Positions 3,001-58,199 of a stretch of 64,000 bases of DNA are shown here, piece after piece. Source of the DNA: Piedraia hortae CBS 480.64 (Eukaryota); contig MU005960.1 in NCBI GenBank assembly GCA_010093745.1, forward strand, positions 310,636 through 374,635, given 5' to 3'. The translations under genes were made by a program, and so were the position numbers. How positions within the stretch are numbered: the first letter of the stretch is position 1; the number at the start of each line of letters is the position of its first letter. The notes beneath the pieces are model-generated. The model was given only the letters and a program-made list of their open reading frames with translations, had not been told where the DNA came from and did not search any database.

Positions 3001-3207
3001 ATAAAGGACGATCTTGTCTTTCCGAGCATCAACTCCATCATCGATCCTTCGGCGCTTGTTTGGATGAACTTGGTGGTCTGCAGCATGACTCAAAAAATAC
3101 AGAGCGGGGGTCGAGTATCCTGCTTCAACAACGATTGTTTTGGAGTCTCTGGACCTGACATGCGTCCCGCGGGCCTCTAGAGACCTTTCCACATTTGCCG
3201 GCGGCAT
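1..3207 (-). CDS. IRC20: SNF2-family helicase/E3 ligase, IRC20/SHPRH-like (runs off the left edge)
   Basis: Manual minus-strand translation of sampled segments, all in one frame with ATG 3207 (alternative 3228): LFPFQERTVTWMLARE, GGILAEEMGLGKT, WWRICLDEAQMV, WAVSGTP. Missing from the ORF track, probably because no stop lies inside the window. Confidence 0.85.
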   Translation of the reverse strand, partial: MPPANVERSLEARGTHVRSRDSKTIVVEAGYSTPALYFLSHAADHQVHPNKRRRIDDGVDARKDKIVLYRLSIDLFFLNDVVHSEDSETVNVEIQEIDDDRLCIASCNDSDNVLVVDCAYIPSEVSEILRLFVLACSFKLPVEDHATVAHCTLKQIGGHDTNRALRLEAVLSWQLDKPAFPPRTPISHISSYPDYDILTATFPDPLCDPSNSNEPCTPADLYDCMHVPDKHVKASGTCNAVLNTALFPFQERTVTWMLAREGVKLSSDGSLARITSDCRNDYGFYRKVYDLDGQSCYVNLLAGSVQRERPAESRISGGILAEEMGLGKTVEIASLITLHRMPSPHQLPKCDLLYTGATLVITPERIIGQWRSELAKHAPSLKVFELRNTNWRTKNSGSLYDDSEVVKKLEKEYDIVLVSYDTLGRELNYVEEPPQRNLRHPKKYARRTSCLVKLKWWRICLDEAQMVSSGVTSAARVARQLSRMHSWAVSGTPMYTGIQDLHGLLIFLDYKPFSQSVKLWNLLVTKHRHLCQRLFGTIAIRHNKALVGGELELPPQKRIVVTMPFSAVEQQAYTTMFEEMCIDVGVNLDGSPNNGYWDPNDPVTVQKMRSWLRRLRMACLHPLMNGHTGKLLGRSNTALLTVTDVLQMMMDENVKAIRNHERDVVQSLLMQGHVIGNNRQDELRAAHALQFYTNALKKSAVLLQDARDRMSAFSNKTNSAKKSTSEVSKVLTELTNNLRTALLDRHLAAFHAATATYQYKINNSVVKPGSDQFNRLEQSEAEAYDLARGLRAEILEDSRSRANRLMSQVTDLVSKNKQTSFPDIDELLGDDVQYVTQHDLGIFQGLAEYGALIQQWRSKLVSYIAKPLMDQNDDQVATGEEYDNSVLEQDALYAYFDALKALCADLNLLVTGSSAHLVENETRGDDASSVEYMRVSSLLRAEKRIIRPAGFRGSLQSSMNQARSSQDMEQFNTLRKIFSSYSKVLTGLQRELSLFRGAQNQRLEFYRQLQQISSGVSPWKDKLDDRFDVESFEQFHAAETKANGQVKQLKTKQRYFQNLMEKGEHRDEQ

Positions 3208-3338
3208 CTTGTGAAAGGTGCAGCTCATCTTTAAGTCACTGGATTCGATTGGTCGCAGGCCCGGCCCGAGCCGAGCTGACTAATTACCGGCCTGTCCCGC
3301 AACGATACCGCCAAAGCATTGCATTAGATTGGACCAAA

Positions 3339-17483: not shown

Positions 17484-19648
17484 ATGGGCCACGGACCTAT
17501 TAAGGGGGGAATAATCTTTTATGAACAAGTCACAATGAATGGGTCCATTCCCAAAACAAGATGGGCGCACTCTTGTGAAAACAGAGTATTAGGGCCTGGA
17601 ATGGAGTTCCGGAGTCAGGCTTATATCGAACAGATGGCAAGGATTGAAATGAAGAGAAGGGCCGAAGAAGAGGAACTAGAACCGCTGAAAAAGAGGCTCC
17701 TGATAAACTGTCTGCTCTGTTGTGCAGGTCGCCACGGAGCGATCCGCAGGTGATAACCCACATCCCAGACCAGGGTTCGAGTACTCAGAAATTTTCTTGT
17801 GTAGCTCTTGATACGCGTATATACTGACACACCTGTGAGGTGCCGCTGCTTACTAGAACATGCTCTCACAATCTGGCCCGACGTTTGGCTGCGCTACCCC
17901 AAAGCGTTCGAAGACGCCGGTGCGGCCTGCACAGCATTCGAGGCATAATTTTGCAAAGAGCATGCAGAATTTCATCCAGACGCCGCATTTTTTGGCTGAG
18001 CAGTCTTTGCAGCAACTGTCCAAAACGCCCCAAGGCTCCGTGCTTCCCGACAGCCAGGCAAAACAGCGTAAACCCTCTTGCGAGAAGTTGGTTTCTCGAC
18101 TCTCCCAACGAGAGCCCGCTACCGCGCAACCTGGCAAGAAGCGACCTCTTAAGACGTGCGAAGGGCCAAAGGAGCTGGAGCGCCGTGTAAGATCGTGCAT
18201 GAAAGAGTCTGCCGACCAAAATGTGCAGGCTAAAGTACCAGCCCAGGGCCTAAATGAAAGATATCGTTGTGAAATGCCTGCTACGCCTCAACATAATGGG
18301 TTGTGTCCCTTCCATATGGCTCATCTTGCTTATTACCTTGAAAAGTTAATGGCACAGGTCGCCACCTCACCAGCACAGCAGCAAAAGGGGATATGTCCAT
18401 CCCAGCAGCATCCAAAGGCAACGGCACGAGTAGTAAGCTCCACGAAAGCTGAGCAGCAAATTGGGATGTGTCAGTTCCAGCCAGCTTGCATCTTCCAGCG
18501 AAAGCCACCCCTTAAAAGACAGCTACCTATGACCACGTCTGCCCAGCAACGCGAAGAAACCCGCACAACAAAATACAAACCACCACAAAATCCTTGCAAT
18601 GAGCTGCTGGGGCGTGTTATCTCACTCACACAGATACCTGCTGGGTGTCATTACGTGGCAACTTCTCAGCAGACTCCTCACCTGCACCAATACGGAGGAT
18701 TGCTTACCCAGGTCGCTCATATGAAACCAGGGTCGCAGACTCATACCTAGCATCAATACGGCGCAAACTATCAGCAGCTAGTCGGAACGCCGCAGACACC
18801 TCATGCCATGCCAGCCAGTTATCAAACCTGGGCAACACACAACCACGTATCTCAAGTCCTTCGACAGAACCAAACTCAGCCCCCCCCCTTCAAGCCGGGT
18901 ATCCCAAACCTCGTGCTGCACAGGATGCACAGGCGAACGATTCCTTGCGTCAGCAGAGACAATGCCGGTAACTCCTCAACATGCCCGAGTACAAATACCT
19001 TCTCAACCCAGGTATCCCATTCCTCGGCTGCTGGGCCAAACGCATATGGCTGCGCAACAGCAGCTTGGGAACGCTCCTCAGGCAGCGCAGTCGCAGTTCC
19101 ATGGCAGGGCTCACACGCCGCTGGTGCAGGCACAGATGCCCATCTCTCAGGTGACATATGCAATTCAGATTCGTTCACAACCTCAGATGCAGCAGCATAT
19201 TTAGGCGCTGGCCCTGCCTCAGAATGAGATTCGTATGCGCCAGACACAGGGACTGCCACAGAACGGAGTCCATTTGCACCAGGCACAGAGGCTACCTTCG
19301 AATGGCGCCCGCATGCCTCAAATGCAGCAAACCGAAGCGCAGGTCCCATTACAAAATGATTTTCACATGCACCGGATGCAGAAACAGCCCCAGAATGGCA
19401 CCCGCCTGCTGAGCGGAATGCCAGCAGGGATTTACTACCACCGAGTAACTCGTCAGATCCAAGCACCTCAGATCTATCCCGGAGGATATGTTCACGGAGT
19501 GGCCCCGACGAATAACTACCAAAGGGGAAAGTTTCACCCTTCCATACGCCAGAATGCTTACAAAGGAGTACCTTGCGTGAGAACGTGCAAGCGGATAAGT
19601 GAGCTTGATGGGGCCTGGGGGTGTTTTTTTTTCCCTTGTGTATTATGA
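17484..19648 (+). pseudogene. Orphan Q/P-rich family, copy 1 (LTR-disrupted, nonsense codons)
   Basis: FYEQVTMNGSIPKTRWAH..QAYIEQ..KKRLL. Removing LTR E and one TSD joins ORF 17439-17753 in frame to ORF 17860-18750. Further Q-rich segments follow TAG stops at 18748 and 19202. Confidence 0.75.
17718..17860 (+). mobile_element. Short solo LTR family E (143 bp)
   Basis: TGTT..AACA termini, perfect TSD TGCTC. Confidence 0.88.
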
Positions 19649-20217
19649 TTGCCTTTGCAATAGTCGTCTGAGCGTAGAGTAAGCTTGGCTCAAGCATAGA
19701 AGCCAGTAGAATGAAGCTTTAACACCATTATTTTGAATGGGCTCTACGTATGCGTTATGATGAACATGTTCATGCTGTCCGTTAATATCAGGAGGATGAA
19801 TTATACTGACGAAAGCTCCATAAACTCTCCTCTTTTGGACTGTTGGTGATTGCAAGCTCGGCTATGAGAGGAGGGAGTCGATTTTCCTCACTTGCACACC
19901 TCCAGACTCGCTTCAAATCCACCGGGATATTGCAAGGTCTTCTCACCTTCATCACATTTCCCGCTATCTCACCATTCATACTTTGGGATCCCATTGTTGC
20001 TCGATGTAATGCTCGTGCACCCCATGTTTAGCGTAGACTAATTTTTATTTTTTTTAGGTACGACTAGTTACGCTCAATAAGAATCTTGTTCTCGGAAGAG
20101 ATTGGTCATATTGTCAAGTCGCCTGAATTTGTATGCACATTGGTGTCCACGTTGGATAGTTAGAACATTGTTAAGATCAAGTGCCATTGCAATTGTGTCG
20201 TAACATGGTGTGTGAAC

Positions 20218-22129: not shown

Positions 22130-22375
22130 TTAAGTTCTCTCTAGCCTACCTACGCCCCACAATCACTTCGCTCACTACGAGGATTTATAGCGTTGTCCAG
22201 TCGATCGGCAACTGGCGCATGTTGATGTCTTTCGCGTATGGTTAAAACATTGTTACGGCCAAGTGTCACAGTGTATTTTGTTGTGTAAACAATGCACTAT
22301 GACGCCACCCACACCTGGTATAACTGGAGCGCTCTCTCTCATTCCCCTAATCTTAAAGACACCACACGCTACCTA

Positions 22376-23470
22376 ATGAACTACACACCTATGGAAAGGA
22401 GAGTAACTTTTTATCAGCAGGTCACAAATGATGGCAACATAACTAAAACTATATGGGCCCATTTTGACAGCGATGGAGAACTGGGTTATGGTGTGGAGGT
22501 CCCCAATCAAGCCTATATTGAACAAAAAACGAGGACCAATATCAACAAGAGGGCCAAAGACCTCGAGATCCAAGACATTGAAAAAAAGCTCCTGGGAGCA
22601 TTGGATGTTGCGTCACATCTCTGGTCGGCATTTGGCCACGCTGCCCCAGAGCCTCCGAAGACGCCAGTGCACTCTACCGAGCATTCAGGACAATTGCCTG
22701 AGCAGTATTCGCACGATATGTCCCCGGCACATCGATTGTCTGTACTGGCAGTTCAGCGCACGCACCCTCATCAACCCTCTCCGTTGCATTCAAGCATTCA
22801 GCCTCTGCAACAGCAGGTGGGTACTGCGCATATTGGTGTGAAGCGACCTCGGGAGGCGCATGAAGGGCCAAATGACTGCGAGCGCCGCGTTAAGCCTCGT
22901 ATGGAAGAGTGTACATATCAAAACGCACATGTACAGGCGCCAGCCCAGCGCCAGGCTGCTGCAACACCTCAGCTCAAGCGTGCCGACAACATCTTGAATC
23001 AAGTGGAAAGCCTCAGCAATCCAGGTGGCCCTCAACAATTGCAAGCAGCCACGCGTCCAACTGAGGTTCAAGCATGTCCCACACCACGTCCGCGGAGAGC
23101 GACGCAAACGCCAACGCCAATATTCAGTCAGCGACATGGTGGGATGTTCTCCTTCCAGATGACTCGGATGCCTCAGAGATTTAACCGTTCGACAGCGCAG
23201 ATAGGCACTTCCACGCCTTCACAGCACGGAAGTGGGATACACGCATCCCAGGCAGCGCGCACCGTTCAGCCATACACGCAACCGGCGACTCAGGTAGCAA
23301 CCATCACACCTGCTCAGCAGCGTGCGCAGCGAGCAGCCCGAATCATGCAGTACACACAACGTATCTCTGCTCAACCCGTCCTTCGACCGCATGATATCCT
23401 GGGTATGTCATTACCTCAAAACGTTGCCCGCCCGCCGCAAGCAATGGCGGTAACTCGGGCTGGGAATTAA
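22376..23470 (+). CDS. Orphan Q/P-rich family, copy 3 (open frame)
   Basis: N-terminal domain FYQQVTNDGNITKTIWAHF..EVPNQAYIEQK..IEKKLLGALDV plus Q/P/A-rich tail. Start chosen by alignment with paralogs (ORF opens at 22292). Confidence 0.7.
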   Translation: MNYTPMERRVTFYQQVTNDGNITKTIWAHFDSDGELGYGVEVPNQAYIEQKTRTNINKRAKDLEIQDIEKKLLGALDVASHLWSAFGHAAPEPPKTPVHSTEHSGQLPEQYSHDMSPAHRLSVLAVQRTHPHQPSPLHSSIQPLQQQVGTAHIGVKRPREAHEGPNDCERRVKPRMEECTYQNAHVQAPAQRQAAATPQLKRADNILNQVESLSNPGGPQQLQAATRPTEVQACPTPRPRRATQTPTPIFSQRHGGMFSFQMTRMPQRFNRSTAQIGTSTPSQHGSGIHASQAARTVQPYTQPATQVATITPAQQRAQRAARIMQYTQRISAQPVLRPHDILGMSLPQNVARPPQAMAVTRAGN

Positions 23471-25196: not shown

Positions 25197-25729
25197 CTTG
25201 CCGTCAATAAGACTAGACTAGGCAGGAAACCGAGGTAGGCTTTGTTAATGAAATCCTCGTCGGTCTTCTTCTACAACCCAGGATGGGTGGCCTGTCAAAT
25301 GCAACTGGCGACTCTCAGAGCTTTTCTCGTAATGAGCCTTGGGATACTGAATAGGGTTTTGCCACTGTCACTCAAATTCATATAGAGAAAGCCTTCAAGG
25401 AAGCCCTTCGTCTAACAATTACCAACCGTTCAAACTCATATTTACCTGTCAGAAGAAATATCTGTTTGGCACTAAGATTGATAAGGCGTAAATGCGTACT
25501 AGTCCCCAAAAGAACCCGTGTGGCCGGTCCGTGCACGTGCGCATACACGCACTAATCAGCATTAGCCTCACTGCGTGCCAAGGACGCACTTCTATACCTT
25601 TCCAAAATTCATTCCTCGAACATAATTCCTTCAAACACGAGTTTCATTTACACAGACCCCACGCATAGGTACCCTACAGCTACGAATACCACAAGCGCGC
25701 ATGCCTCAAATATCACCGGTAAGGACAAG

Positions 25730-26755
25730 ATGCGCCAAACGCACTATGTGCAGGTCACCACAGACGGATCAGTCCCAGAAACCATTCTAGCCGTTTATGA
25801 CAATGGAGTGGAGGCCTTTGCGTGTGAGGAGCTTCCCAATCCTGCCTACACCGAAGTAAAGAGGAAGGAGAGTCAGGCCAAGGCAATTGCTAGGGCAGAA
25901 AAAAAACAAATTGAAATGAAGCTCCTGGATGCTTTGGACGTGCCTAGGGTAGAATGGCGTCAAAATGGAAGATTCACAAAGGAAGTGGTGCCTCCGTTGC
26001 AGCCGCAGCCACCCGTACTAAGGCATACTTGGCAGGTAGCCCAGCCTGGACCAATCTCACCTGGGCAGTGGCCGTATGTGGGCCCTCCCCCTCCCCAAGC
26101 TCCATCGAACCAGTTGCAGTCTATACACCCAGTATTACCACTTCCACAACCGACGTTCCATCCTGGCAACACCATGCCGCGCGCACAGCCTCACCCCGAC
26201 TTGCTCGAACGCAGTACGGCATTTCCTGTGCATCCACAGGCGCCACAGGGCCATCCAGTCCCGCCACCGGCGCAGGTCCCGCTGGCTCCCGGGGCGCAGG
26301 CACAGCCGGCTTCATGGTATGAGTACGCGTCGCAGCCTGTGTTCCCCCAACAGATTCATGGTATCGCGCGTTTGAACCGGCCCACCTTGCCTATACCGCC
26401 TCTGCCTCCGCTGTCACCACAATCACCGCAGCCACAGCCGGAGCCGCATCAGGCCCCGGGTTCGAGTCTGCAGGGACGCATAGGACGGCCTACGCATATT
26501 GACCTCCCGCCAAATCCATTTGCGAATATACAGAGTGGGCCAACTGTGCCACTGCCACCGAATCAGTTGGGCCAAACTGTGACGTCGACGCCGTCGCACA
26601 CGAATCTAAGTCCACAGCGTGCAGGAGGGCTGGTACCAGGTGGACAGACTGTTCCTGAGACGTCGCCGCGTCAACCTCAGACTGTGCATGAGCATACTCA
26701 GTTTCAGGCGAGCCAAAGTCCAAGTCGTCAGAGAGGGCAGGGAGAAGATGAATGA
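25730..26755 (+). CDS. Orphan Q/P-rich family, copy 4 (most divergent, open frame)
   Basis: HYVQVTTDGSVPETILAVY..ELPNPAYTEVK..IEMKLLDALDV plus Pro/Gln-rich tail; 341-aa ORF. Confidence 0.7.
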   Translation: MRQTHYVQVTTDGSVPETILAVYDNGVEAFACEELPNPAYTEVKRKESQAKAIARAEKKQIEMKLLDALDVPRVEWRQNGRFTKEVVPPLQPQPPVLRHTWQVAQPGPISPGQWPYVGPPPPQAPSNQLQSIHPVLPLPQPTFHPGNTMPRAQPHPDLLERSTAFPVHPQAPQGHPVPPPAQVPLAPGAQAQPASWYEYASQPVFPQQIHGIARLNRPTLPIPPLPPLSPQSPQPQPEPHQAPGSSLQGRIGRPTHIDLPPNPFANIQSGPTVPLPPNQLGQTVTSTPSHTNLSPQRAGGLVPGGQTVPETSPRQPQTVHEHTQFQASQSPSRQRGQGEDE

Positions 26756-40507: not shown

Positions 40508-41961
40508 TGCTCATCCGCTTTCTTGATAACGTTAGGTTGTTGGGGGAGATTTGATCAAGCGATCCACTTGCTGTGCCGGTTGCTGTGGAAAGATCCATTG
40601 GGATGAACGAGGCTCCTGGTTAGAATGAGAGATTCATGCGATGTTCTGGTAGGTTGAACATGTGTAGACAGGGAGAGATCTGCAAGGAGCTGAATACAAC
40701 CTCATTTTGCCATGTAGAGTCACTTCCTCTATGGCAATCGCCGTAACCAAAGCAGGTGTCATTCCCTTGGGGTATTCCCCTTTCAAAAAGTTTCGGTCTC
40801 GGGCTGTGTTCGGCTTCCCTGAACCTCGGCCTAGATTTTCTTTAGAGCTGCACTTTGTTGGATAGGGTTTCCAAAATTTATATTCGTAGATGACTCATCT
40901 AACAGCTAAGCTTTTGGCATCATCACCCCGTGTGCAATAGCATCGTCCCAGTAGTGACAGTCGATTCGGGGGTCTTATTGCTAGTTGCTATAGCAGCACC
41001 CCTGAGTAGAGGTCCCGAGAGGGTAGGGCTGCGATCAGCCGATTTTCATGTTCTTGAGTATGGTGAACGGGTGGAGAAAGAAGGCAAATTGGACTAATTT
41101 TTTTAGGTTTAGCGCAACAAGTTCAGGTTGCGGAGAGATGAAAATAAGCTGTGAAGCTGCTTGATGCAGGGCGCGACTACGTCTATTCCATGGCCTTTAA
41201 TTATATAAAGAAGAGGTCTCGTTGGACTGGTATGCCTCTCAGTGAGTTGCTGTTATCGCATGCGACATTACGATGTCATGGTCGCGACTCCATGGGTTTT
41301 ATTACGGATCTTTATGCTTCGGGTCAGTCGATTTTGGTAAGCTGGAGGAAGTTGAGTACTCCTACTTTCATGCAGGTGATAGACACCCTTCTCAGCGGCA
41401 ATACAGCTGGCACATGGTAGGAATACAGTTCAGCGGGGCTGGCAGGATGCGACTCCATCTTTGCTATGATGTCAGGCACAGCCGCAAAAAAATTTGCTTG
41501 GGCTGTTGTGTCTCTTGACGGGAAGACAGGAGCTGTTGTAATCGCATGCGGTGCTGTGACATCCTCAGAAGAGCTGCTCCGGCTACTGTGTCGCACCTTC
41601 CCGTTTCGTCAGACATTGCCGATCTCCCGGTGTCAGGAAGCCGAGGACACATAACGGCGCTAAAGCTGGCATGGGAACGATTGTTGAGGTATCAGTAGCT
41701 TCAGACCATTCCAGTGGCGGGTAGAAAGGACTTTCAGATGCAAAGAAACAATGGCCACTGCTCAAAGAGTTTGACCAATTTTTTACCCTTCGGCATTGCT
41801 TCCATGCCGTGACTACGCTGATGACTGTTATAGTGTAGTAAGCTTTGATAGCACGGAGAGATGCACGATTCGCTCTTGCTAGCTTGGCGGGACTTGGATT
41901 TATAGCTCTTGCGCGTGACACTTCCTCCTCCAAACTTCACTTTTCCAACAGCGAACATCCA

Positions 41962-42879
41962 ATGTCAAGTTTTTCCTCTTCTAACCCACCTTTCGGAGTA
42001 AATGAAGCGCATGCGTTGGTCACAGGCCAATTGCCACACTCTGTCTGTCCCCCACCGACGTCTGACTTGGTTGATGGCAATCGCTACGCTCCCGCCGTCA
42101 TGGAGGTGGCCCATGAGCGTGCTGTAGAGTACATGGTTAACCATTGGTATAGCAGCAACAGCGTGGTTCTAGCGGACGAGGACGACCTCAATCGGCCCCT
42201 GGAAATCGCCAAATTCTTTGCGCGGCTCATCTACCTTAGGGGTGTGCAGCGGCCGAGCCTCATCCTGGTAACTGAGCTCCAGCTACAGGTGTGGATGGAA
42301 GCTTTGAGCAATCAACTAACAGAACACGACTTCCTGGTCTATGATGGTGACCAGGACACTCGCCAGCGTATCCAAAACGAGATGCTGATAAGCCCAGTCT
42401 ACCCGCGTCGTTTGCTCTACAATGTCATTCTCATGACGCATGAAAGCGCAGTTGAGGATGCTGATTTCCTGACAATGTTTTCTTGGGAAATTTTGGCAAT
42501 TGACGAGGCCTACTTGGTGAAGTCGCCGGAATCGAAAATTTATCGTGCACTTGTCACTCTCCCCGTCAGATGCCGTATCTTCATCACAGACACGCCTTCG
42601 AAGTTTGGACCAAATGGACTTGCAGCGCTGTTGAGCTTTGCCTTACCATCGGAGTCGCAGGCAGTGATACATGGGCGAGGTAGCTACTTCTCTCGATTGA
42701 CGCCTGACGATACAGCGGAACAGATTAACGACAGAGTGGAAGAGCTTAACAAGAAATTGGAGCGAATCATGATCAAGCGTACCGTTGCAGAGATGGAAAG
42801 GGCACCGACACCCGCGTCGAGTTTCGGCTCGGTGCATGGGTCGTCGGAGCAAAGTGAGAGACGACATGCGACGCCATAG
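41962..42879 (+). CDS. Stand-alone degenerate Chd1/Hrp-type SNF2 ATPase lobe 1
   Basis: Colinear with the Chd1 N-lobe as recalled: VVLADEDDLNRP (vs ILADEMGLGKT), YDGDQDTRQRI, YNVILMTHE, WEILAIDEAYLVK (vs DEAHRLK), FITDTP (vs ITGTP). Open frame. Confidence 0.75.
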   Translation: MSSFSSSNPPFGVNEAHALVTGQLPHSVCPPPTSDLVDGNRYAPAVMEVAHERAVEYMVNHWYSSNSVVLADEDDLNRPLEIAKFFARLIYLRGVQRPSLILVTELQLQVWMEALSNQLTEHDFLVYDGDQDTRQRIQNEMLISPVYPRRLLYNVILMTHESAVEDADFLTMFSWEILAIDEAYLVKSPESKIYRALVTLPVRCRIFITDTPSKFGPNGLAALLSFALPSESQAVIHGRGSYFSRLTPDDTAEQINDRVEELNKKLERIMIKRTVAEMERAPTPASSFGSVHGSSEQSERRHATP

Positions 42880-43630: not shown

Positions 43631-44542
43631 ATGACCATGCTGCATTGTGACAGATCTGACGCAGGAACAGTGTCCCAAACTCTTCAGTGCAAGGGCCAAA
43701 GTCTCAAGCCGCAGGACTCTCACCACCGCTTAGCCGGCAAGGAAAAGGAAAGTGCAAGCCTGAACATGAAGAAAGGCGAGGGGGTGCATAATGAACACAC
43801 TGAACAGGCAGAAGACGAAGATGAAGACGTGTCAGAGTCAGTTCAGGACTACAGCGATAAATCAGCTGATTAGGATTCGTCTACGGATAATGGCTCAGAG
43901 TCGGGGAACAGTGATGCTTCGTCTGACGGCCCGGTATCCACTCTAGTCCTTCCGCGCGATATCTGGTACTCGGAAAAGATAGAACGGAAATGGCAACAAA
44001 TTGTCCAGCAAACGATGGCCAGCACTGAGGCTGTCCTCCTCGACTTCCCTTTAATCAATGATTCGTCCCCGCCGATCGAAGATCTCGACCCATTCGACTT
44101 GAACGAATCCTCGCCCAAGATACAAGATGAAGAGTCCATGGCCGAAGACCTCATCAACCAGCATAAAGCAACGTGCGACTCTGATATATGTCGAAATGCC
44201 TATGAACTCATCACGTCCAGCTTCTTTGACCTCATACAAGACCTTGACGCGAGGGACATTGACAGCGGCAACGAAGAGCGAATCGCAGATATCAATGAAG
44301 CCTGCCTCAATAACTTGCTACGAAAGCTGAAGTTACTCGCTGGCTTCCAGCAGTATCTCCAGAAGCACTGTCCATCGGGTGCAACGTCTTCTTCCCCGGA
44401 TGCGGAAAGAGCATCAAAAGGGCTGAGATTGTTCAGAGTGTCTACCCTGTGGAGCCAGGAGACAAGTCCCAAACGCAGGGCAGTACGTGATCCTTCGGGA
44501 GAGATGCCAATGATGAAGCGGAGGGATACTCACCGTGAATAG
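43631..44542 (+). pseudogene. Acidic hypothetical protein with one in-frame TAG
   Basis: ORFs 43631-43873 and 44015-44542 share a frame and the sequence between reads on as D/S-rich protein past TAG 43871. Confidence 0.5.
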
Positions 44543-45322: not shown

Positions 45323-45593
45323 GGCTTAAGACTCTCGAATGGTTTCTTAGGTGGAAGAGTAGTTGGGGTGGAACGCAGACCTGTTGGGCGTCGAGGACGT
45401 ATGGGAACAAGCAACCGCGTGAGTGCTTCTGATACTATGTCCCGTGGATGTCTGCGTCGCTTTATATGTGAATACTCTCAATATTTTTCACTCTGTGGGG
45501 AAAGAATTTGACACCTGCCTAATCTAGCGATGTGGAGCTCGGCACGGGCCGTCCCGACGTCTACAACCTCTCCCGTCTCCTCGCGAAATCGTC

Positions 45594-48500
45594 ATGACGA
45601 AGCGCCTACGCGCAGACGAGAACGAACGAGGCCAGAAACGCGTCAAGACCTCCAACCCGACTCCCACTCACCCGACATGGCCCCTCCTGCAAGCATATTA
45701 CCGTGACGTCTCCACCTTGCGACAATTCCTCTTATCCCCATCTGCCGGCCTCCCAGCCGACGTCCGCCAGACGATCAAGTACTGCGGCTCCTCCCTCGAT
45801 GATGACGCAACGCTAGTCCACCTCCTCGATAGTGCGATCGTTGGAGTCCCAAGCTCCCCTCAAATTGCGTTCTCGCAACGGGACCTCTCTGAGCACATCA
45901 AGCAACTTGCGTTACTGAAAGGCGAAGTCTTACAACGCGGCAGGTTCACACAGACGCAGATAGTGGATTTTGTGATCTGGCATCTCATCGGCAAGGACTC
46001 TTGGAATCGGAAGTATCATTTGCTGAGTCACGGGTTTTATAGTAGGATTGCGAGCGCAAAGGGTGCGGATGTGCAGGTTGTTCCCGGCGCACCGGGGGTT
46101 TTGGTCGCGCATCACAATCCGTATGTTGAGGCGTTGAGGGAACATCCTTGGACGGCGCTTTGTCGCCTTGTTGGGAGTAGGGCTGATGAGGTTTTGAGTC
46201 GGCTGTTGCTTCAGTGTGGGGTCTTTGTGCCGGTGGGAATGTCAGGGAATTTGAGCCAGATTAGTGGGATTGCGATGTATAAGTTGAAGAGGAAGAGTAA
46301 TGGGGAGGGGAGAGGTGAGCAGACGGGTGGTGTGAGAGTTCATCTTGTGAGTCACAGGATGGTTCTGAGACGGCCGGCGCTGGGGGCTAATGGGAATGTT
46401 GTTTTTGGGCTTGGGCCGAAGCATGTTCTTAATGTTTATCGAGATCTGGAGGACAGCGGTCAGACACGGCATGTTTTGAAGTTTGTCTTTCCAAGACAGT
46501 TTCGTTTGCAGAATGTGTTTGTTCAGGAACCGGATTCGGACAGGTGCCAGAATTACCAGTCTCGCGAGGATGAGGTTAAAAGTTTGCGGACGAAGAATCG
46601 GATACCGAAGCGGCTGGGTAATGGTGCCTTGGAGCTCGTATATCGCCTAAGGAAGAGACACGCGAGATGTTCCTACCATGCTCTTTTGCAGCACTACTGT
46701 CCACCGACTGTGAGTGGGACAACGGTCCCATCAGAGTCGATGACTCTCGCGACAGATACAACCCAAGTATCAGCTTTTTGTCATGCTGTGATTTCCAAAG
46801 TTTTCCCCGCCGAATTCTGGGGAGACGGAGCAGTTAGAGAGCACAACCAAAGAGCACTAATGGTAAGCGTCGATCGATTCATAAACCTGCCCAGGTTCAC
46901 GAGCATGAGTTTGAACACCGTCCTTGAGCCCATGCAGGTGCAAAGCGTATCGTGGCTGATTCCGCCGCAATGCTATGCCAAGCACATGAGCAGGACAGAC
47001 TTTACGAAAAGGCGTGAGCTCCTGGCTGAGCTGATATACTACTTGTTTGATTCTTTTCTGATCCCACTTATCGGCGGTTGTTTCCATGTCACCGAATCGA
47101 ACATGCAGCGTAACAAGCTCTTCTATTTTCGGCATGATGTTTGGAAAGCCATGACCGAGCCGGCTCTCGCAAGTTTAAGGAGCTCGATTTTCGAAGAGTG
47201 TAGTAAATCCGTCGCCCAGAGAATGTTGTCAGCAGATTCGCTTGGTGTAAGCCAGTTGCGGTTCCTGCCCAAGGAGAATGGAATGCGTCCTATAATGAAT
47301 CTCCAGCGGCGTGCGTCGAAGATTCAGAGTGGAAGTGGTAAGAGCATCAATGAGGCTCTGACTCCGGCTTTTAGTGTGTTGAATTATGAGAGGGAAAAAG
47401 CTCCTAAGTTACTGGGCTCGGCCTTGTTCTCGGTTGATGAGATACTCCCTCGTCTGCGCGCTTTCCGGGCCAGCCTGAAGCGGCAGAAGCTAGACGGTCG
47501 CCGCTTGTATTTTGGGAAGCTGGACGTGAAAGCATGCTTTGATACCATTCCTCAGCAGAAATTGCTGGCTGTGGTTCAGGAAGCCCTTCAGGGGGACAGT
47601 TACCAAGTCTCCGAATATGCGAGAGCAAAGCTCATTGGAAGCAGCTCAGGGACTAAGCCGTCGTGGAAGCATGTCACCAAGGCGAGCTCAAACAAGAGCG
47701 CATGCGCACTTGACGACAAGACGGCAGAGGAGATCCTGCGCGGCCGCAACAGAACCGTGTGCGTGGACCTTGGTATGCAGAACACCGAAAGCTGTGACAA
47801 CATCTTGAAACTGTTACAGGGCCATGTCCTGGGCAATATGGTCAAAGTTGGCAAGAGCTTCTATATCCAAAAACGAGGCATCCCGCAGGGCTCAAAGGTG
47901 TCATCTTTGCTATGCAACTACATTTACGGCGATTTAGAGCAAAAGGTCCTCGCTTTCTTGGGCGAGAACAGCCTGTTGCTTCGTATGGTGGACGATTTCC
48001 TGGTCATCAGCACGGAGAAAGATGTAGTCGAGCGTCTGATGAAGCTCATGCACAATGGCCTGCCGGAATACGGAGTGCAAGTCAAGGCGGAAAAGAGCAG
48101 GACGAATTTCCCTCTCGTCGCCGCTGGTCAAAGAATCACCTCGTTGCCACAAGCGACAGACTTTCCGTTTTGCGGCCATGCCATCAACACCATCTCACTC
48201 GATTTGACAAAGGACCATGAAAGACAAAAGGCCGAAACCAGCATTGCTTACTCCAAAGCACCCGGTCACAGTTTCCGCCGCAAAACGCTCAATGCACTGA
48301 AACTTCAGATGCACGCAATGCTGCTGACGACGGAGTACAACAAGGTGCAGACGGTCCTTTACAACGTCCACCGGGCTTTCAGTATCACGGCACAGAAGAG
48401 TAGAAGCTTGATTCGTGCTCTGCCAAGACAACCGAGGGATCAGTTGATTATAGGTCAGCTATTTCACATTCGCAATGGTGGCATTGAGCTAATCGTTGTC

Positions 48501-48838
48501 TACCCAGAAACTGTGGAGGAGCTGATAAACCTTGCATCCGCGCTCATACGGCGACGGAAACACATTGGAAGGCAAATGATACCCTTTGAATGTGAAGTGA
48601 GCCGGGCTCAAGTACGATGGTGTGTCAACCCCATCCCGTTTTCCATCTCGTAGCTAACCTCATCAGGCTTGCTTGTTCAGCATTCTACACCGCCTTTCAG
48701 CGACGAACGCAGCATCAAGTGCTGCTAGTTTGGCTGCGTTCCGAGCTGGACAATCCAGGCGTTCGGGCCCAACGCAGCATCTGTCAGCCTGCCATCTGCA
48801 GCAAGCAGAGTAGAGGGGTAAAGAAGAGGTCACGATAA
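45594..48838 (+). CDS. TERT: Telomerase reverse transcriptase
   Basis: T motif FHVTE..FYFRHDVW, motifs 1/2 LRFLPK/MRPIMNL, A KLDVKACFDTI, B' GIPQGSKVSSLLC, C LLRMVDDFL, E PFCG. Predicted introns 48454-48507 and 48620-48666; last exon WLACSAF..TAA 48838. Confidence 0.95.
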
Positions 48839-48847
48839 GAAGGCCAT

Positions 48848-49906
48848 TCAGGGTGGATTCTCATTGTTAGACGTTTTGGCCTTCTTCAAGGGTCGACTTG
48901 ACTGGTCGCCATCAGACAGATCCTTAGATTCCATAGGGTCTGGAAGCATGTGGTTGCACTTTTTGATCTTTGTTGCCAAATAAGATGTATACTCTGGGCC
49001 CTGGATGCCATTGCGGCCACCAGTCTGCCAGGCCAAGGGAATCATGGGCACACGTTCAGCCACATGCACTTCCCGATTCGGGCCCTCAACGGCGCGAATT
49101 TTATCTGGGTTGTTTGTAAGCAGTCGGATTCCTCGGTCACCGCCGAGACCCAGGTCCTGCAGAATTGCAGTGGCGAGGCCGTAAGAGCGTGCATCACCCG
49201 GATGACGGAGCATAAGATTGGCCTCGACCGTGTCGTGGCCTAGGTCCTGCAGATTGTAAGCCTTGAGCTTTTCTTGCAATCCAATGCCGCGGCCTTCTTG
49301 GCGCAGATAGACAATGACGCCACCGTTGATATCGGTCGGCGTTGCTGGCAGACACATGATTCGAGCCGCCTCGTCCAGCTGCTCCCCACAATCGCAGCGG
49401 ATCGACTGAACTGTCTCACCCGTATAGCACTCCGAGTGTATACGCACCAGCGGCGGGACGTTGGCCAGCTCGGGCGATTCCTTCGGCTCCGGGCCTGCGC
49501 TGCTGATTCGACCCGGGTAGAGCCTGGCATGGTAGGCGCCCCGAGTCAATCGGTCGCTCTCTGTCTCGCCCGGCCGCTCCTCGAACAAGCCTTTGCTCCA
49601 TATGTACGGCCCAAAAACGAGAGCCAGATGCTCCTTGTTGTCGACGTTGTTGCTGTAGAGGTGCAGCCACATGTCCTGCCGCCACTTGGTTGGGATGCGC
49701 GCGCGCACCTCACACCGCACCACCGGCAGAGGTGCGTCCAACGCTGAAGGCCTCGGCTCAGATGAGGTTGGAGACGGCACCGCTATGCTGGGCTGCAGCC
49801 CGTCGGCCGACGCTTTAGTGCCGCCGCGGGGAGTGCGCGGCGGCGTTCCCACCGGACTGACCAGCGGCGGCAAGGCATCCTCTTGAGGCTCAAAGAGGTC
49901 CGACAT
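48848..49906 (-). CDS. RIB1: GTP cyclohydrolase II
   Basis: [57 protein letters not shown]. Confidence 0.95.
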
Positions 49907-49982
49907 TTGACTGGGCAGAGGACGGGAGCCGCAAGACTCGAGTATCGCCGGCGGATGGGCTGTGATAGGGCCCTGGGCTGTG

Positions 49983-50015
49983 TAGGGTCAGGATCAGGGT
50001 CAGGGTTCTAGGGTT
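49983..50015 (+). repeat. Degenerate telomere-like hexamer tract in the RIB1/TBC divergent promoter
   Basis: tagggt caggat cagggt cagggt tctagggtt. Confidence 0.5.
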
Positions 50016-50189
50016 GGGCGAACTCTCTGCCAGGAGACAGCGACGGGAGCCAAGCGGCAAGCGGCCAAACATAGATGGCGCCTTCCGCAGAGCCCGTGAT
50101 TAATAGACTTCAGTTTGCGTCTTTATCCCGCGGAACACATGGCGAACTAGCAGTCGCCCAGTGCAGCGTCCGGGACGAGTAAGACCATC

Positions 50190-52310
50190 ATGGCCGGGGC
50201 GTCGACGAAGCTGTCCAGTGGTCCCCGGCCGGCGTCTCCTTTGACAGCAAAATCAAATGGAAACGAGCTGAAAAATGGAACCTCTAGCGGAAGACCGTTG
50301 GAGCGGGCGGAGACGGCGCCGGCGGCGGTGGAAGCAGCGGCGTCCCCTGAGAGCGTCGACTGTAACGTCAAGCCCGAGAACCGACCGACACTGCGCCGTC
50401 CCGTCAAGAGGCCGACGAGCCGGCCCGAGTCCCTACTGTTGTCCCCCAAGCCAAGCGGTCGCGATGAAGGGGTGGAGCGGCCCGGCAAGCGAGGAATGCG
50501 TCGCGGCCTCACCAGTCCGCCCACCGTCTTTGCCCAGCGGTTCTCTTCCCCCCCCTCAGCCCGCAGTCCGTCGGCATCGCCGCCCAATTCCTCAACGCCG
50601 CAGTTTCTTTCGCCCACAACCTCCCATCATCAGGGCTCGTTGTCGAATCCGCTGTCGCGCCGCTCGTCGTGGCAGCCCGGCCGGCGGTTGGTCAAGGACC
50701 TCGAGGCCGAGTACGACAATCACGAGGCCGACAACGAGCTGCCGGACGAGGCGATTCTGGAGAACATCCCCATGGCTGGCTTTCCCACTGCTCCCGCCGA
50801 GTTTCGCTTCCCTCGGTCGTTGTCTTCCAGCCCCCACCGACATCCGTCGCCGCCAATGTTGTCGCCAGTGCATAGCACATTGCACTCAGCCAAGGTGCCA
50901 CGCAATGCGAAGCGTCCGACGGGTCCGCCGCTTTCCGCCGGTCCTCGTTCACCGCGCCACTCAGGTCGCATCCGTCCGCCACGTAGTCTGTCGGCCAGCG
51001 GTCCGCGCGCTAGCCGCGAAATCGTCGATCATCGCCCGGCGTTTTGGAAAAAGGATCTCAACGAAGAATCTCGTCAGCTGTCAGCCGCTCTTGCCGAGTA
51101 TAGCGAACGTATCTCTTCGGAAAAGTGCGCATCAGGCTCTAACAGCGCGAATAGCAGTCCGCCGCGGGACAGCAGCAGCAAATCTCGGCCCGTTTCCCTA
51201 ATCATCGACCGCAACCAGATCCAAAAGGGCAATATTATGATTGATCCGCTGCCGATCAGCAAGGAGAAGGAGGCGGTTTTGTCCCGTACGCGGCCGTCTT
51301 GGCTGCCACCCAAGGACCAGAAGGAGGAGCGACGACACATGAAGCAATGGGAGCAGATGATGGCGCATGCGGCAGAGGCGGAGAGGAAAAAGGCTCAGCG
51401 CCTCAAGATCGAGGCCGAAAACAGGGAAATACAGCAAAACAACATTGCCCGCGTATGGAACGACCATGTGATACCTAGATGGGATGCTGCCGTGCGGGAG
51501 CCGCGAACGCGCGAGCTTTGGTGGCGGGGCGTGGCCAGCGGAGATCGTAGCCTGGTGTGGTCCAAGGCGGTGGGCAACGACTTGCGGCTTTCTCGCGCTT
51601 CCTTTACCGCTGCTTTGGGTCGTGCAGCCGAGCTGGAACAGCAAATGGCGTGTTTGCCGCACGATCAACGTGGCTCCAGCAAGGAAGCTGGTTGGTTTAC
51701 GGCCATCCAGCGGGATGTGCCCAATGTCTTTCCCGAGCTCCAACTCTTTCGCCCCGGGTCGCCCGCTGCTCGTGCCCTGACGGATGTCCTCACGGCGTAT
51801 GCCATGTATCGACCAGATGTTGGCTACGTCTTTGGCACGCATCTTATCGCGGGTCTTCTCTGCGTGCATATGCAGGCACCCGATGCGTTCGTGACACTTG
51901 CAAACCTGCTCAATCGGCCGGCTCCACTCGCATTTCTCGTACACGACCAGGTTACCATGACGCGCACCTACGAGATGGTATTGGCTGGGCTCAAAGACAA
52001 ATTGCCGAGTCTACACGCCCACCTGACCTCGTCAACAATAGGTCTCCAGCCTGATGAATTCCTTGATCCCATTTTCCGCTGCCTGTTTGCATACCACTTG
52101 CGGTCTGAACACGTCAGCCGCATATTCGATATCTATGTTTTTGAGGGCGATTTATTCTTGATGCGTGCAGCAGTGGCAGCCCTTGGCCACTTGGAAAGCA
52201 AGCTTTATGGCTCACGCGAGGAAATTCTCCAGGTTATTGGCTGGAGTAACGAAAGCAGATGGGATCTCGGCTCAGAAGATGACTTCATCACAGAGGTTAG
52301 GGGCCGATGA
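50190..52310 (+). CDS. TBC/Rab-GAP domain protein (TBC1D12/14-like)
   Basis: RPSWLPPKDQKEE, RELWWRGV, IQRDVPNVFPELQLF, AYAMYRPDVGYVFG, RIFDIYVFEG. Confidence 0.88.
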   Translation: MAGASTKLSSGPRPASPLTAKSNGNELKNGTSSGRPLERAETAPAAVEAAASPESVDCNVKPENRPTLRRPVKRPTSRPESLLLSPKPSGRDEGVERPGKRGMRRGLTSPPTVFAQRFSSPPSARSPSASPPNSSTPQFLSPTTSHHQGSLSNPLSRRSSWQPGRRLVKDLEAEYDNHEADNELPDEAILENIPMAGFPTAPAEFRFPRSLSSSPHRHPSPPMLSPVHSTLHSAKVPRNAKRPTGPPLSAGPRSPRHSGRIRPPRSLSASGPRASREIVDHRPAFWKKDLNEESRQLSAALAEYSERISSEKCASGSNSANSSPPRDSSSKSRPVSLIIDRNQIQKGNIMIDPLPISKEKEAVLSRTRPSWLPPKDQKEERRHMKQWEQMMAHAAEAERKKAQRLKIEAENREIQQNNIARVWNDHVIPRWDAAVREPRTRELWWRGVASGDRSLVWSKAVGNDLRLSRASFTAALGRAAELEQQMACLPHDQRGSSKEAGWFTAIQRDVPNVFPELQLFRPGSPAARALTDVLTAYAMYRPDVGYVFGTHLIAGLLCVHMQAPDAFVTLANLLNRPAPLAFLVHDQVTMTRTYEMVLAGLKDKLPSLHAHLTSSTIGLQPDEFLDPIFRCLFAYHLRSEHVSRIFDIYVFEGDLFLMRAAVAALGHLESKLYGSREEILQVIGWSNESRWDLGSEDDFITEVRGR

Positions 52311-53894: not shown

Positions 53895-54895
53895 ATGCAG
53901 ACCTTTTCTGTTGCCCGCGGTGCCAATGCACAAAACGGCAAGACCATGCATGGCTATAAGGCCCAATTTCATGCCGCTTCGATGGACAAAACAGCCAACT
54001 ATCCCGCCTATGCTCAGCACGCCGGCATGACGGCCAAATATTTCCAACTCCTTTCCCATCGTGTTGGCAATTATACTGGCATTGCTCCACAAGTCAGGCC
54101 GCCAATTGCTGCTGGCGCCGACGACTTCTCTCGGTTCCTCGACGTTTATGTCGCCCCTACCGACAACTTGTGGGCAGTAGCCTGCAACCCGGCCAGCTCT
54201 GCATTTGGAACCGGCAGTACCGAGATGCCGTCCTCAGGCAGCACCATCCCTTCACCTGCCACCATTCTCTCCACCATACCTGACCCCGCCCCTCCGGCCC
54301 TCAAAATCCAGTTAGCTCCCTCCCATCCCTTCCCCCCTTCTCTCTAACCCCCACCAGAAATATCGTCAGCACCGCCAATCTCGACTGCCACCTCGATCTT
54401 AGGCACGTCGCTCTCAACGCCATCAATACCGAGTACAGCCCCAAACGCTCCCCGGGGTTGACGATGCGTTTCCGCGTCCCCCGCGTAACGGGTGTATACT
54501 TCTCCACCGGCCGACTAATCATCTTCGGTGCAAAATCCCTTCGCGAGAACAAACTTGCTGCGCGCAAATTCGGCCGGGTAATCCAGAAGCTGGGCTACTA
54601 TCCGCGGCTGAAAGAGATGAGGATCCGGAACATCGTGGCGACGTTTAGGATGGGGAGGAAGATAGATTGTGTGGCGCTCGCGAAGAGTGAGCACTGGGAG
54701 AAGTGCTTCTATGAGCCGGAGAGGTTCCCGGCTCTGGAGTATGGATATGGGGAGGTGGATGAGAGGGGAAAGCCAGAGGTTACGGTGCGGGTGTTTGAGT
54801 CAGGGAGGGTAACGATAATGGGGGTAGGGTCGGAGGAGAAGTTGGTGGAGGTGTTTGAGAAGATGAAAATTTTGCTGGAGGGGTTTAGGCGTTGA
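53895..54895 (+). CDS. Divergent TATA-binding-protein paralog (TBP-related factor)
   Basis: Intron 54311-54357 (GTTAGC..CTAAC..CAG) joins ORF 53706-54347 to the frame of ORF 54458-54895. This gives both TBP repeats: IQNIVSTANLDCHLDL..EYSPKRS..YFSTGRLIIFGAKS..AARKFGRVIQKLG and IRNIVATF..YEPERFPAL..VFESGRVTIMG. Start codon tentative. Confidence 0.88.
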
Positions 54896-56199: not shown

Positions 56200-57507
56200 C
56201 TACATACTCAAAATCCCATTAACATTGCTTGTGTACTGTTGCATGATTGCCTTAATCCTGTGCTCGTTCTGAAGTGAACGGCGCGTACCGGGGCCAGTTA
56301 TTAGATGGTCGAGGCCGTTACCAAGGCCTCGAGCCAGAGCAGAAGTCAGCTTAGAGGTGCAAAACGCCCAGAAGGACCTATCATCCATCGGGAGCGCCGT
56401 CCACAGTTCATTCGACGATGGAACTGCATCATGAAACTGTTCCTGAACCTTGTTAATGTACGCCTCAGCGTGGAAGACGAACAAAGTCTGACCATCTTCC
56501 GAAAACATGCTCCCGAGGCCGCGAAGCAGCGCTTCTCTCCCGCGCCCCTCCATGGCCTGGTTGATGCGTGCGAGCTCACGCTTGATGACGTCTTGGGTTG
56601 CTGACACACGATGGCAGCCGACTTTAGAGTGAAGCTCGGTATCAGGCCGCTTCTGGTATTTGCTGTAGCGGCCACCGATGCGCAGATATTTAAGTCCGCT
56701 CATATTTCCTTGACCAAATGCCACGAGCATGCTATTTGTAGCTGTTCGCCAGTACCTTTTCTCAACAGATGGCACTTGTTGCCAGGGACAAAACGAAGAG
56801 GGTGCTGGATTGTTATGCGCATGGTAGTAGTATAACGACCTGCCGTCAACGGCAAAACGGCTACCAATGAGGCGCAGGAGCCGGGAGGCCTCATCTTCCG
56901 AATCCAGAGTGAGCGTGTATTCGACGAGCTCGGAGAGGTCTTGATGCGACATGTTCTTGTCGAGGATAAGGACTTTGATCGAGTTGTTCTCTTTGCCGTC
57001 GATATTCTCGTTCGAACGGTGCTTGGGGGGCGAGACACTCGTGTCGTCGACAGAGCCGGAACGGCGCCCAATGGCTTCGGCGGAAACATCCCATGTGCCG
57101 TTAAGCAAGGCTTTCTGGTGCGAGTCTTGTTTAGAGGCAGTAAACACAGGCTTGGAGTCCGTGCTGACGATGTCACCGATCTTGTCGGATTGGACATGGA
57201 AATTGCCCGCCAAATAGTTATGCAGGACCTCAGGCTCTAGCGGAGCCAGGCTGCCGGTCATTAGGCTAGTTGTATGGCGCGCCCAGTACATCTGCTGTTC
57301 GCCACCGTCGGCGAGTTTGTTCCAGCGCAAGCCGGCGCTGTAGACGGCTATGGACCATGGTTCCGTGGCTTCGATATGTGGAATCATATGAAACTTCCAA
57401 AGTGTGAGGCCCGTAGGATCGATTTTTCCCTTATTGATAGCGTCTGCGCGGTCGGCGGCAGTCATGGCCTTCCAGGCATTCAGCTTGAATTCTGGATGGA
57501 ATGCCAT
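56200..57507 (-). CDS. Hypothetical protein with degenerate HMG-box-like segments
   Basis: Intact ORF. GLTLWK..AGLRWNKLADGGEQQMYW and ELWTALPMDDRSFW resemble the HMG helix-3 W..L...E...Y/W pattern. Start taken at MAFHPEFK. Confidence 0.6.
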   Translation of the reverse strand: MAFHPEFKLNAWKAMTAADRADAINKGKIDPTGLTLWKFHMIPHIEATEPWSIAVYSAGLRWNKLADGGEQQMYWARHTTSLMTGSLAPLEPEVLHNYLAGNFHVQSDKIGDIVSTDSKPVFTASKQDSHQKALLNGTWDVSAEAIGRRSGSVDDTSVSPPKHRSNENIDGKENNSIKVLILDKNMSHQDLSELVEYTLTLDSEDEASRLLRLIGSRFAVDGRSLYYYHAHNNPAPSSFCPWQQVPSVEKRYWRTATNSMLVAFGQGNMSGLKYLRIGGRYSKYQKRPDTELHSKVGCHRVSATQDVIKRELARINQAMEGRGREALLRGLGSMFSEDGQTLFVFHAEAYINKVQEQFHDAVPSSNELWTALPMDDRSFWAFCTSKLTSALARGLGNGLDHLITGPGTRRSLQNEHRIKAIMQQYTSNVNGILSM

Positions 57508-58199
57508 GCCGCTTCGCGATGTGATGTTATGTGATGGCTCTAAGCGTTGGAAGAGGCAAATCGTCTGCAGTGATGGTTGACGTGTCTGAACGTGGTTGCG
57601 TCGATGGTATTTGGGGGCAGAAAAGAGTGCCGGCCAACATTTTATATATCGAGTCGAAGAATGCACCTCCGACGTGGTGTCGTAGCATTGCAGGCGTCGT
57701 AAATCACAACAATTTAGTGATGACCCATAATACTTTACTACCATGGTCAGTGCACAATCCACCGACGCACTTTACTCTGTTGACGCCGGAAACAATCACC
57801 GCGGACAAAGGCTGTTGACTGCACGTTACCATTAAAATGCATTCGAGCATGTAAGTGGAGGTGATCAAAGATTCTCAATCACCGAGTCCCGCACAACGTA
57901 CCCCACGCACCGGCTTCATCGGTGCGTCGACGCGGTACCTTTGGGGGTTAGTGTGAGGAAAATGGAGGGCGGTGTCGGTGTTCCAATCGAAAAGAAAAAT
58001 GGATCCAGAGCAGGCACATTAAAAAAGCAGGCTTACTTGAGCCAACTGGGTTTTTTGCAGGTGGGACAATTTACTCTGATCAATTATCCTTTTCGTGCAT
58101 TGAGTCAATTTCGTGTAGGTAAGATTTACACGCTAAAGTATGAAAGCTAACTCCATAGCGACGCAGGATGTTCGAGACTTTTTTGTTTATTACATTCTC

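Follow-up and report, generated by a model that had tools for sequence, protein, structure and literature searches.

In textbooks, fungi exemplify a single, universal TATA-binding protein (TBP) that serves all three polymerases, and a locus of the filamentous ascomycete Piedraia hortae CBS 480.64 raises the question of whether a second, remodelled TBP can stand beside it. The gene lies on the forward strand of contig MU005960.1 (assembly GCA_010093745.1), in a 64-kb window (contig positions 310,636 to 374,635) that is the whole stretch of DNA analysed here and whose own numbering is used throughout. It is a real, intact and strongly divergent TBP-family gene, and its sequence suggests that it probably encodes an additional factor for transcription start with a specialised role. 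Our preferred reading, to which we give a probability of roughly 0.55, is that the product is functional and restricted to this lineage, a TBP-related factor whose promoter specificity has changed and which would bind DNA and general factors and would not read TATA. If a second, remodelled TBP in a filamentous ascomycete is true, core-promoter factors have diversified in fungi as well, and the locus is a natural experiment in which the DNA-reading face of the saddle changes while the partner surfaces stay. The TBP-like gene is at present a well-documented lead, not a demonstrated system.

What, then, does the locus encode? Structurally, the gene comprises two exons and one short intron, with the following features:

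53895 to 54310, + strand: exon 1, starting at the first in-frame ATG (53895) and continuing in an open frame through 138 complete codons and on to the CA that opens the junction's Gln codon
54311 to 54357, + strand: spliceosomal intron of 47 nucleotides (nt), with a GTTAGC donor, a pyrimidine-rich body and a CAG acceptor (AG at 54356-54357)
54344 to 54348, + strand: branch-site consensus CTAAC inside the intron, recognised from the sequence
54358 to 54895, + strand: exon 2, with the last base of the Gln codon, the two-repeat TBP core (178 amino acids (aa), P0001) and the stop TGA at 54893-54895
54359 to 54625, + strand: TBP repeat 1 (core residues 1-89, family alignment), with the codon of the F99S change at 54449-54451
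54626 to 54892, + strand: TBP repeat 2 (core residues 90-178, family alignment)
54743 to 54772, + strand: lengthened second stirrup loop of 10 residues, GYGEVDERGK (family alignment, HMMER, BLASTP, AlphaFold model)

Spliced, the gene has 317 codons and no internal stop. The junction codon (CA from exon 1, A from exon 2) encodes Gln, the product runs from PALKIQ directly into NIVSTANLDCHLDL (start NIVSTANL), and the splice restores QNIV, the family-consensus start of strand S1. Exhaustive enumeration of the region gave 12 stop-free, frame-compatible GT..AG pairs, among which only 54311-54357 leaves S1 intact and at the same time has G at +5 and places a CTAAC 10 nt upstream of its AG. The preliminary description had proposed that this 47-nt intron joins two open reading frames (ORFs) without a stop, and donor, branch site, acceptor and the restored QNIV all bear it out; short introns of this kind are usual in filamentous fungi. 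It had further proposed that the two ORFs together form a complete two-repeat core, which stands as to completeness and needs correcting as to the parts, since the core is nearly all exon 2, and exon 1 adds the Gln and a variable N-terminal region (138 residues, rich in Ala, Pro, Ser, Thr and Gly). A complete TBP-like protein nevertheless needs the splice, because the first Met of the unspliced exon-2 frame is core residue 36. Nor is the gene hidden, as it had been called, because its 183-aa exon-2 ORF carrying PF00352 was already present in the protein collection (P0003).

The reading frame itself looks maintained. Under a log-odds codon model for which ten long ORFs of the window served as training set, exon 1 scores +0.155 and exon 2 +0.288 bits per codon in frame (training ORFs, 0.077-0.316); read off-frame, exon 1 scores -0.105 and -0.294, and off-frame and intergenic stretches overall fall between -0.04 and -0.54. 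The G+C content at third codon positions (GC3) is 0.59 in exon 1 and 0.73 in exon 2, and the two off-frames of exon 2 contain 8 and 11 stops against 0 in the 178 codons of the coding frame. Divergence of a duplicate driven by repeat-induced point mutation (RIP) was considered and rejected, the indices TpA/ApT (0.64) and (CpA+TpG)/(ApC+GpT) (1.31) being similar to those of the neighbouring genes. Together, the codon usage, the stop-free frame and the RIP indices argue against a long-dead copy.

Family membership is clear. In searches and folding runs that used exon-wise translations, exon 2 matched the Pfam family PF00352 in two stretches with 136.4 bits (cut-off 22.9; E 2.9e-40), and exon 1 (P0002, 138 aa) matched no Pfam family. 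A sequence search of the PDB returned 35 TBP sequences at E <= 0.01 (best E 4.8e-36), led by the TBP of Chaetomium thermophilum (7z7n_D, 127.3 bits) and followed by those of human (124.7), Arabidopsis (120.5) and yeast (120.3). The AlphaFold2 model of the core, built on a 65-row alignment, has a mean predicted local distance difference test score (pLDDT) of 97.0, none of the 178 residues falling below 90, and a predicted template-modelling score (pTM) of 0.82. Foldseek superposes it on eukaryotic TBP chains with template-modelling (TM) scores of 0.88-0.91 and root-mean-square deviations of 1.4-2.6 A, and on archaeal chains with TM scores of 0.79-0.81; the core is accordingly predicted to adopt the saddle-shaped, pseudo-symmetric alpha/beta fold of the family. 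The ESM Atlas returned generic TBP clusters only, both for the core and for P0054.

How far has this core moved from TBP? Comparators were drawn from 203 matches by removing 46 that covered fewer than 160 query residues, the self-match and 12 identical cores, which left 144 distinct TBP cores. The P. hortae core is 43.3% identical to their consensus (the median comparator is at 71%), and its highest identity to any single comparator is 43.9%. Columns conserved in at least 85% of the comparators number 54, and the core keeps 38 of these and changes 16; identity to the consensus is 50.6% in repeat 1 and 34.1% in repeat 2. Fungal TBP cores are nearly invariant, a property this one does not share, as it is just 39% identical (BLASTP) to a Pezizomycotina-type TBP (P0081) and has a terminal branch of 2.24 substitutions per site.

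Among the 54 rows of an IQ-TREE quick tree (the query and 53 others picked by hand), that branch is the longest, 15-60 times the branches of fungal-type TBPs (0.037-0.15). The phylogeny, which the preliminary description had proposed to build and for which FastTree was also run on all 145 rows, delivered the long branch and no supported sister. A tree that unites the core with eight fungal-type TBPs in one clade survives an approximately unbiased (AU) test (p 0.489), so that an origin by duplication of a fungal TBP gene is allowed. As a separate observation, four long-branch, unnamed TBP-like proteins (P0130, P0075, P0113, P0165) have motifs in common with the core, for example RFPGLTIRIR and NIVATF..G.K, and they join it only through unsupported long-branch groupings.

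Which surfaces changed, and which stayed? Yeast numbering was assigned by aligning core residues 1-178 with positions 69-239 of the full-length yeast chain 1rm1_A, with two gaps allowed for, which gives the equivalences S31=F99, F56=T124, M154=T215, F48=F116, F123=F190, F146=F207, N1=N69 and N91=N159; the yeast residue names match the family majority in every column. Kept in repeat 1 are N69, V71, T73, K97, R98, R105, R107, F116, R137, K138, R141 and K145, and in repeat 2 N159, V161, E186, E188, F190 and F207. The replaced positions, each with the number of the 144 comparators that have the new residue in common with the core, are:

F99 to S, 0/144 (Phe in 142/144)
I103 to T, 4/144
L114 to V, 2/144
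V122 to I, 6/144
T124 to F, 0/144
L189 to R, 2/144
I194 to E, 0/144
R196 to G, 1/144
K201 to E, 0/144
V203 to T, 16/144
L205 to R, 0/144
V213 to T, 2/144
T215 to M, 2/144
K218 to G, 0/144

One of the four intercalating phenylalanines, F99, is therefore Ser, and F116, F190 and F207 stay Phe. The set of residues that reads the centre of the minor groove is likewise split, with N69, N159, V71 and V161 kept and T124F, T215M, V122I and V213T changed. The preliminary description had read Ser, Phe and Met at positions 99, 124 and 215 from the strings PKRS, IIFG and TIMG, had found the other three Phe and both Asn in place, and had noted an insertion (GEVDERG) in the second stirrup; all four strings are present in the translation, and the alignment to 1rm1_A and the family consensus confirm the residues. 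Its further claim of strong divergence with a remodelled saddle gains I194E, R196G, K201E, V203T, L205R, V213T, K218G and L189R, and most of the rebuilding of the DNA-facing surface falls in repeat 2. The second stirrup loop has 10 residues, compared with 4 in 131 of the 145 aligned rows, an insertion of 6 residues by HMMER and BLASTP that AlphaFold models as a longer beta-hairpin (strands E126-133 and E139-145, pLDDT at least 93). Ten other rows have loops of 8-17 residues here, so the site tolerates insertions. Electrostatically, the core carries a net charge of +12 (pI 9.85), within the family range around a median of +14, and this charge is divided into +12 for repeat 1 and 0 for repeat 2, the latter compared with +3 or +4 in four fungal-type TBPs.

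What would such a saddle do? With a net charge of +12, both central Asn and three of four Phe, it may well still bind DNA. In TBP, Phe pairs produce both kinks of the TATA box, the pair equivalent to F99 and F116 making the one between base pairs 7 and 8 (PMC3142196), and a yeast triple mutant, TBPm3 (I194F/V203T/L205V), binds TGTA through changes at residues that face the second base pair (PMC1636458). Because the Phe of kink 7/8 is Ser here, and positions 194, 203 and 205 are Glu, Thr and Arg, the product would neither read nor kink a TATA box as TBP does; taken together, positions 99, 124, 194, 203, 205, 213 and 215 suggest that both the DNA target and the bending have changed. The partner side looks different. 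In yeast and human TBP, E186 and E188 contact TFIIB and stirrup 1 contacts TFIIA, the helix-H2 lysines have a partner role, and TAND is also among the ligands of these surfaces. On that basis, the protein could dock TFIIA-type and TFIIB/Brf-type factors through retained surfaces, as suggested by its two central Asn and three Phe, by the basic character of repeat 1 and by the E186/E188 pair together with the residues of stirrup 1 and helix H2. Like TRF2/TLF in animals, it might then nucleate or modulate initiation complexes on some of the non-TATA or variant promoters. A canonical TBP probably exists alongside it outside the window.

Set beside known systems, the core has in common with canonical TBP (yeast SPT15, Chaetomium 7z7n_D, human core 1c9b_B) the two PF00352 repeats and the saddle (TM 0.88-0.91), the central Asn pair, V71/V161 and three of four Phe; its second stirrup still has the Glu pair, the basic side chains of helix H2 and stirrup 1 are in place, and the core as a whole is strongly basic. 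It differs in its identity of 37-44%, in eleven of the saddle changes listed (all but I103T, L114V and V122I) and in the 6 residues added to stirrup 2. Three features of a canonical TATA-binding TBP are thus missing from it, namely the four Phe, the Thr pair and the near-invariant core. Yeast TBPm3, a laboratory mutant, is substituted at the same three positions, with V203T identical; however, 194 is Glu and 205 is Arg in the P. hortae core, both charged and both found in 0 of the 144 TBPs, so that the outcome for m3 cannot be extrapolated.

By analogy, the protein would work most like metazoan TLF (TRF2, TBPL1). With about 40% identity to the TBP core, TLF is reported to have no affinity for TATA while still contacting TFIIA and TFIIB, and it is described as metazoan and absent from yeast (PMC3142196). 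The P. hortae core resembles it in its roughly 40% identity to the TBP core and its fast evolution, and differs in that three of the four Phe remain. The TRF2 analogy drawn in the preliminary description therefore holds for the degree of divergence, whereas similarity lends no support to orthology: the sole TBPL1-like sequence compared (P0052, an artefactually duplicated gene model that was left outside the trees) is 35% identical to the core, versus 39-44% for TBPs, even though it too lacks Phe at the F99 equivalent and has the motifs CHLxLR and TM(R/K)x(R) in common with it. Three gene models among the matches, P0052 and two plant-like TBPs (P0050, P0051), have the TBP core wholly or partly repeated in tandem; these are probably assembly or annotation artefacts, and their scores are inflated.

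Other natural TBP paralogs, such as insect TRF1, vertebrate TBPL2/TRF3, plant TBP2 and archaeal multi-TBP sets, are extra copies that serve promoter subsets (10.1101/2025.10.03.680374; PMC3142196). Those among our matches lie far closer to TBP, with rabbit TBPL2 (P0007) 87% identical to the consensus compared with 43% for the P. hortae core. The sources place TBP paralogs in animals and, in the portions available, mention fungi only for rare domain architectures (PMC7221094, PMC3597702, 10.1101/2025.10.03.680374). The literature searched, whose coverage is incomplete, describes no fungal TBP paralog, which fits the earlier remark that such a gene is unusual for an ascomycete; the supplementary list of paralog-bearing organisms in PMC7221094 may bear on this. 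More tentatively, and at odds short of even, we propose that with this gene a TBP-related factor comes to light in a filamentous ascomycete for the first time. It would be a second TBP peculiar to its lineage, with one kinking Phe lost and with the half-saddle that reads upstream altered naturally at 194, 203 and 205; it might direct pre-initiation complexes to non-TATA core promoters through its TFIIA/TFIIB surfaces and would be an independently evolved fungal counterpart of animal TRF2.

Does the gene have relatives of its own? A word-indexed search of proteins of near length gave 47 matches, none above 52% local identity apart from the window's own ORF, and the same search of longer proteins gave 7, all 37-41% identical. 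Among the best 150 of 3909 phmmer matches in 1.84 billion representative sequences, the best other than the query itself were 36-48% identical, with no orthologue, and orthologues that evolve just as fast may rank below these 150. A metagenome scan with the core produced 115 pattern matches without a relative among them. The organism also seems to have no close sequenced relative in the collection, because the best matches of RIB1 (GTP cyclohydrolase II), encoded in the same window, are only 63-65% identical and are spread across Lecanoromycetes, Dothideomycetes, Xylonomycetes and Geoglossomycetes; for the same reason, the failure to find an orthologue carries less weight.

Several observations count against a functional factor with a new DNA target. 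No orthologue emerged from the representative or metagenome searches, and both trees give long-branch joins and no supported sister. One sequencing run, whose nature as RNA or DNA is a guess, yielded a single 185-nt contig (54625-54809) that lies inside exon 2, is identical to the window and contains no splice joint, and thus gives no evidence of transcription or of the splice junction. On the DNA-facing side of repeat 2, R196G, K201E and K218G lose positive charge and I194E adds a negative one, changes that could mean that DNA binding has been lost, not respecified. Finally, L189R and the 6-residue stirrup insertion adjoin what we take to be the TFIIB contact and may abolish it.

Could the protein instead be a decoy that keeps the TBP fold and the TFIIA and helix-H2 surfaces, makes no productive promoter contact and titrates TFIIA, TAF1, Mot1, NC2 or similar partners? 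The uneven conservation of the two halves would suit it, as the partner-facing repeat 1 is the better conserved and repeat 2 has lost the net charge it carries in the fungal-type TBPs; so would an acidic residue on the concave face (I194E), the disappearance of R196, K201 and K218, and the report that TLF represses through TFIIA sequestration (PMC3142196). A pure decoy, on the other hand, has no need of the central Asn pair, V71, V161 and three Phe, all of which are kept, the overall charge is still strongly basic, and L205R places a basic side chain on the DNA-facing side. We consider sequestration of partners without promoter binding unlikely.

A TBP duplicate without function, drifting and open by chance or through recent loss, seems to us no more plausible. 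The longest terminal branch in the data set, the 16 altered columns of the 54 strongly conserved ones, the lack of a detected orthologue in the representative and metagenome searches and the unsupported expression in the single run are what such a copy might show. Yet neutral drift to this divergence should have produced stops or frameshifts, of which the coding frame is free, and the splice signals are intact. Exon 2 has a GC3 of 0.73 and scores as well on codon usage as housekeeping genes do; the retained glycines, prolines and core hydrophobics, the pLDDT of 97 and the lack of a RIP signature likewise speak against a functionless copy.

Is it, then, the organism's only TBP, a general factor evolving unusually fast in this lineage? 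No other TBP-like sequence occurs in the window, the extent searched, and the organism has no close sequenced relative (RIB1 at 63-65%); were it so, the gene would be a striking exception to the near-invariance of TBP. The lineage's housekeeping proteins are normally conserved, however, which makes it unlikely that a sole TBP would drift this far and lose an intercalating Phe: RIB1 is still 63-65% identical across classes, and, compared with yeast Pre3, the window's proteasome beta-1 subunit reaches 338.8 bits over 211 residues, while the core reaches 120.3 bits over 178 residues with yeast TBP. TBP cores are about 80% identical from yeast to mammals (PMC3142196). The 39% identity to the Pezizomycotina-type TBP, the Ser at core position 31 where 142 of 144 TBPs have Phe and a branch far beyond the 0.037-0.15 of fungal-type TBPs leave this explanation with very little credit.

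Equally improbable is an origin outside the fungus, by horizontal transfer of a TBP-like gene from a virus or distant eukaryote followed by domestication. The tree does group the core, unsupported, with long-branch unnamed TBP-like proteins and not with fungal TBPs, and no fungal orthologue was found in the searches. Against such an origin stand a short intron of fungal type that contains CTAAC as its branch site, dinucleotide indices and codon usage similar to those of the neighbouring genes, a position among housekeeping genes (TERT, RIB1, RabGAP, a proteasome subunit), a clade with eight fungal-type TBPs left standing by the AU test (p 0.489) and a Chaetomium TBP as the best PDB match.

The genomic setting is that of an ordinary core chromosome. 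Upstream, the gene is preceded by three Pfam-annotated genes, and downstream it faces a stop-free frame on the opposite strand:

45528 to 48653, + strand: telomerase reverse transcriptase TERT (Telomerase_RBD, RVT_1, TERT_C; Pfam)
48848 to 49987, - strand: GTP cyclohydrolase II, RIB1 (Pfam)
50151 to 52310, + strand: RabGAP-TBC protein, directly upstream of the TBP-like gene (Pfam)
56200 to 57771, - strand: stop-free frame of 523 aa, the downstream neighbour, no Pfam match at E <= 1e-4

This neighbourhood was also used as a synteny route to relatives. Of 120 RIB1 proteins listed, 34 were aligned and used to scan metagenome contigs, and 80 loci were kept, 6 of which look fungal (L001-L005, L008). 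With the core, P0081, RabGAP, TERT, the 56200-57771 ORF and exon 1 as tblastn queries, 0 of the 80 RIB1 loci matched, a result that says nothing on gain or loss. In the four metagenomic fungal contigs that include 10 kb upstream of RIB1, RabGAP and TERT do not lie beside it; the TERT-RIB1-RabGAP neighbourhood is not widely conserved.

Elsewhere, the window holds further stop-free frames that, like the downstream neighbour, have no Pfam match at E <= 1e-4, such frames spanning 222-523 aa, and two ORFs for SNF2-family ATPases:

1 to 3279, - strand: SNF2-family ATPase ORF (Pfam)
17857 to 18750, + strand: stop-free frame
18876 to 19718, - strand: stop-free frame
22289 to 23470, + strand: stop-free frame
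25556 to 26755, + strand: stop-free frame
41842 to 42879, + strand: SNF2-family ATPase ORF (Pfam)
43874 to 44542, + strand: stop-free frame

Besides these ATPases, Pfam identifies the proteasome beta subunit, the exosome component CSL4 and a cyclin, and the window also carries a trehalose-phosphate synthase/phosphatase, a protein kinase and an amino-acid permease.

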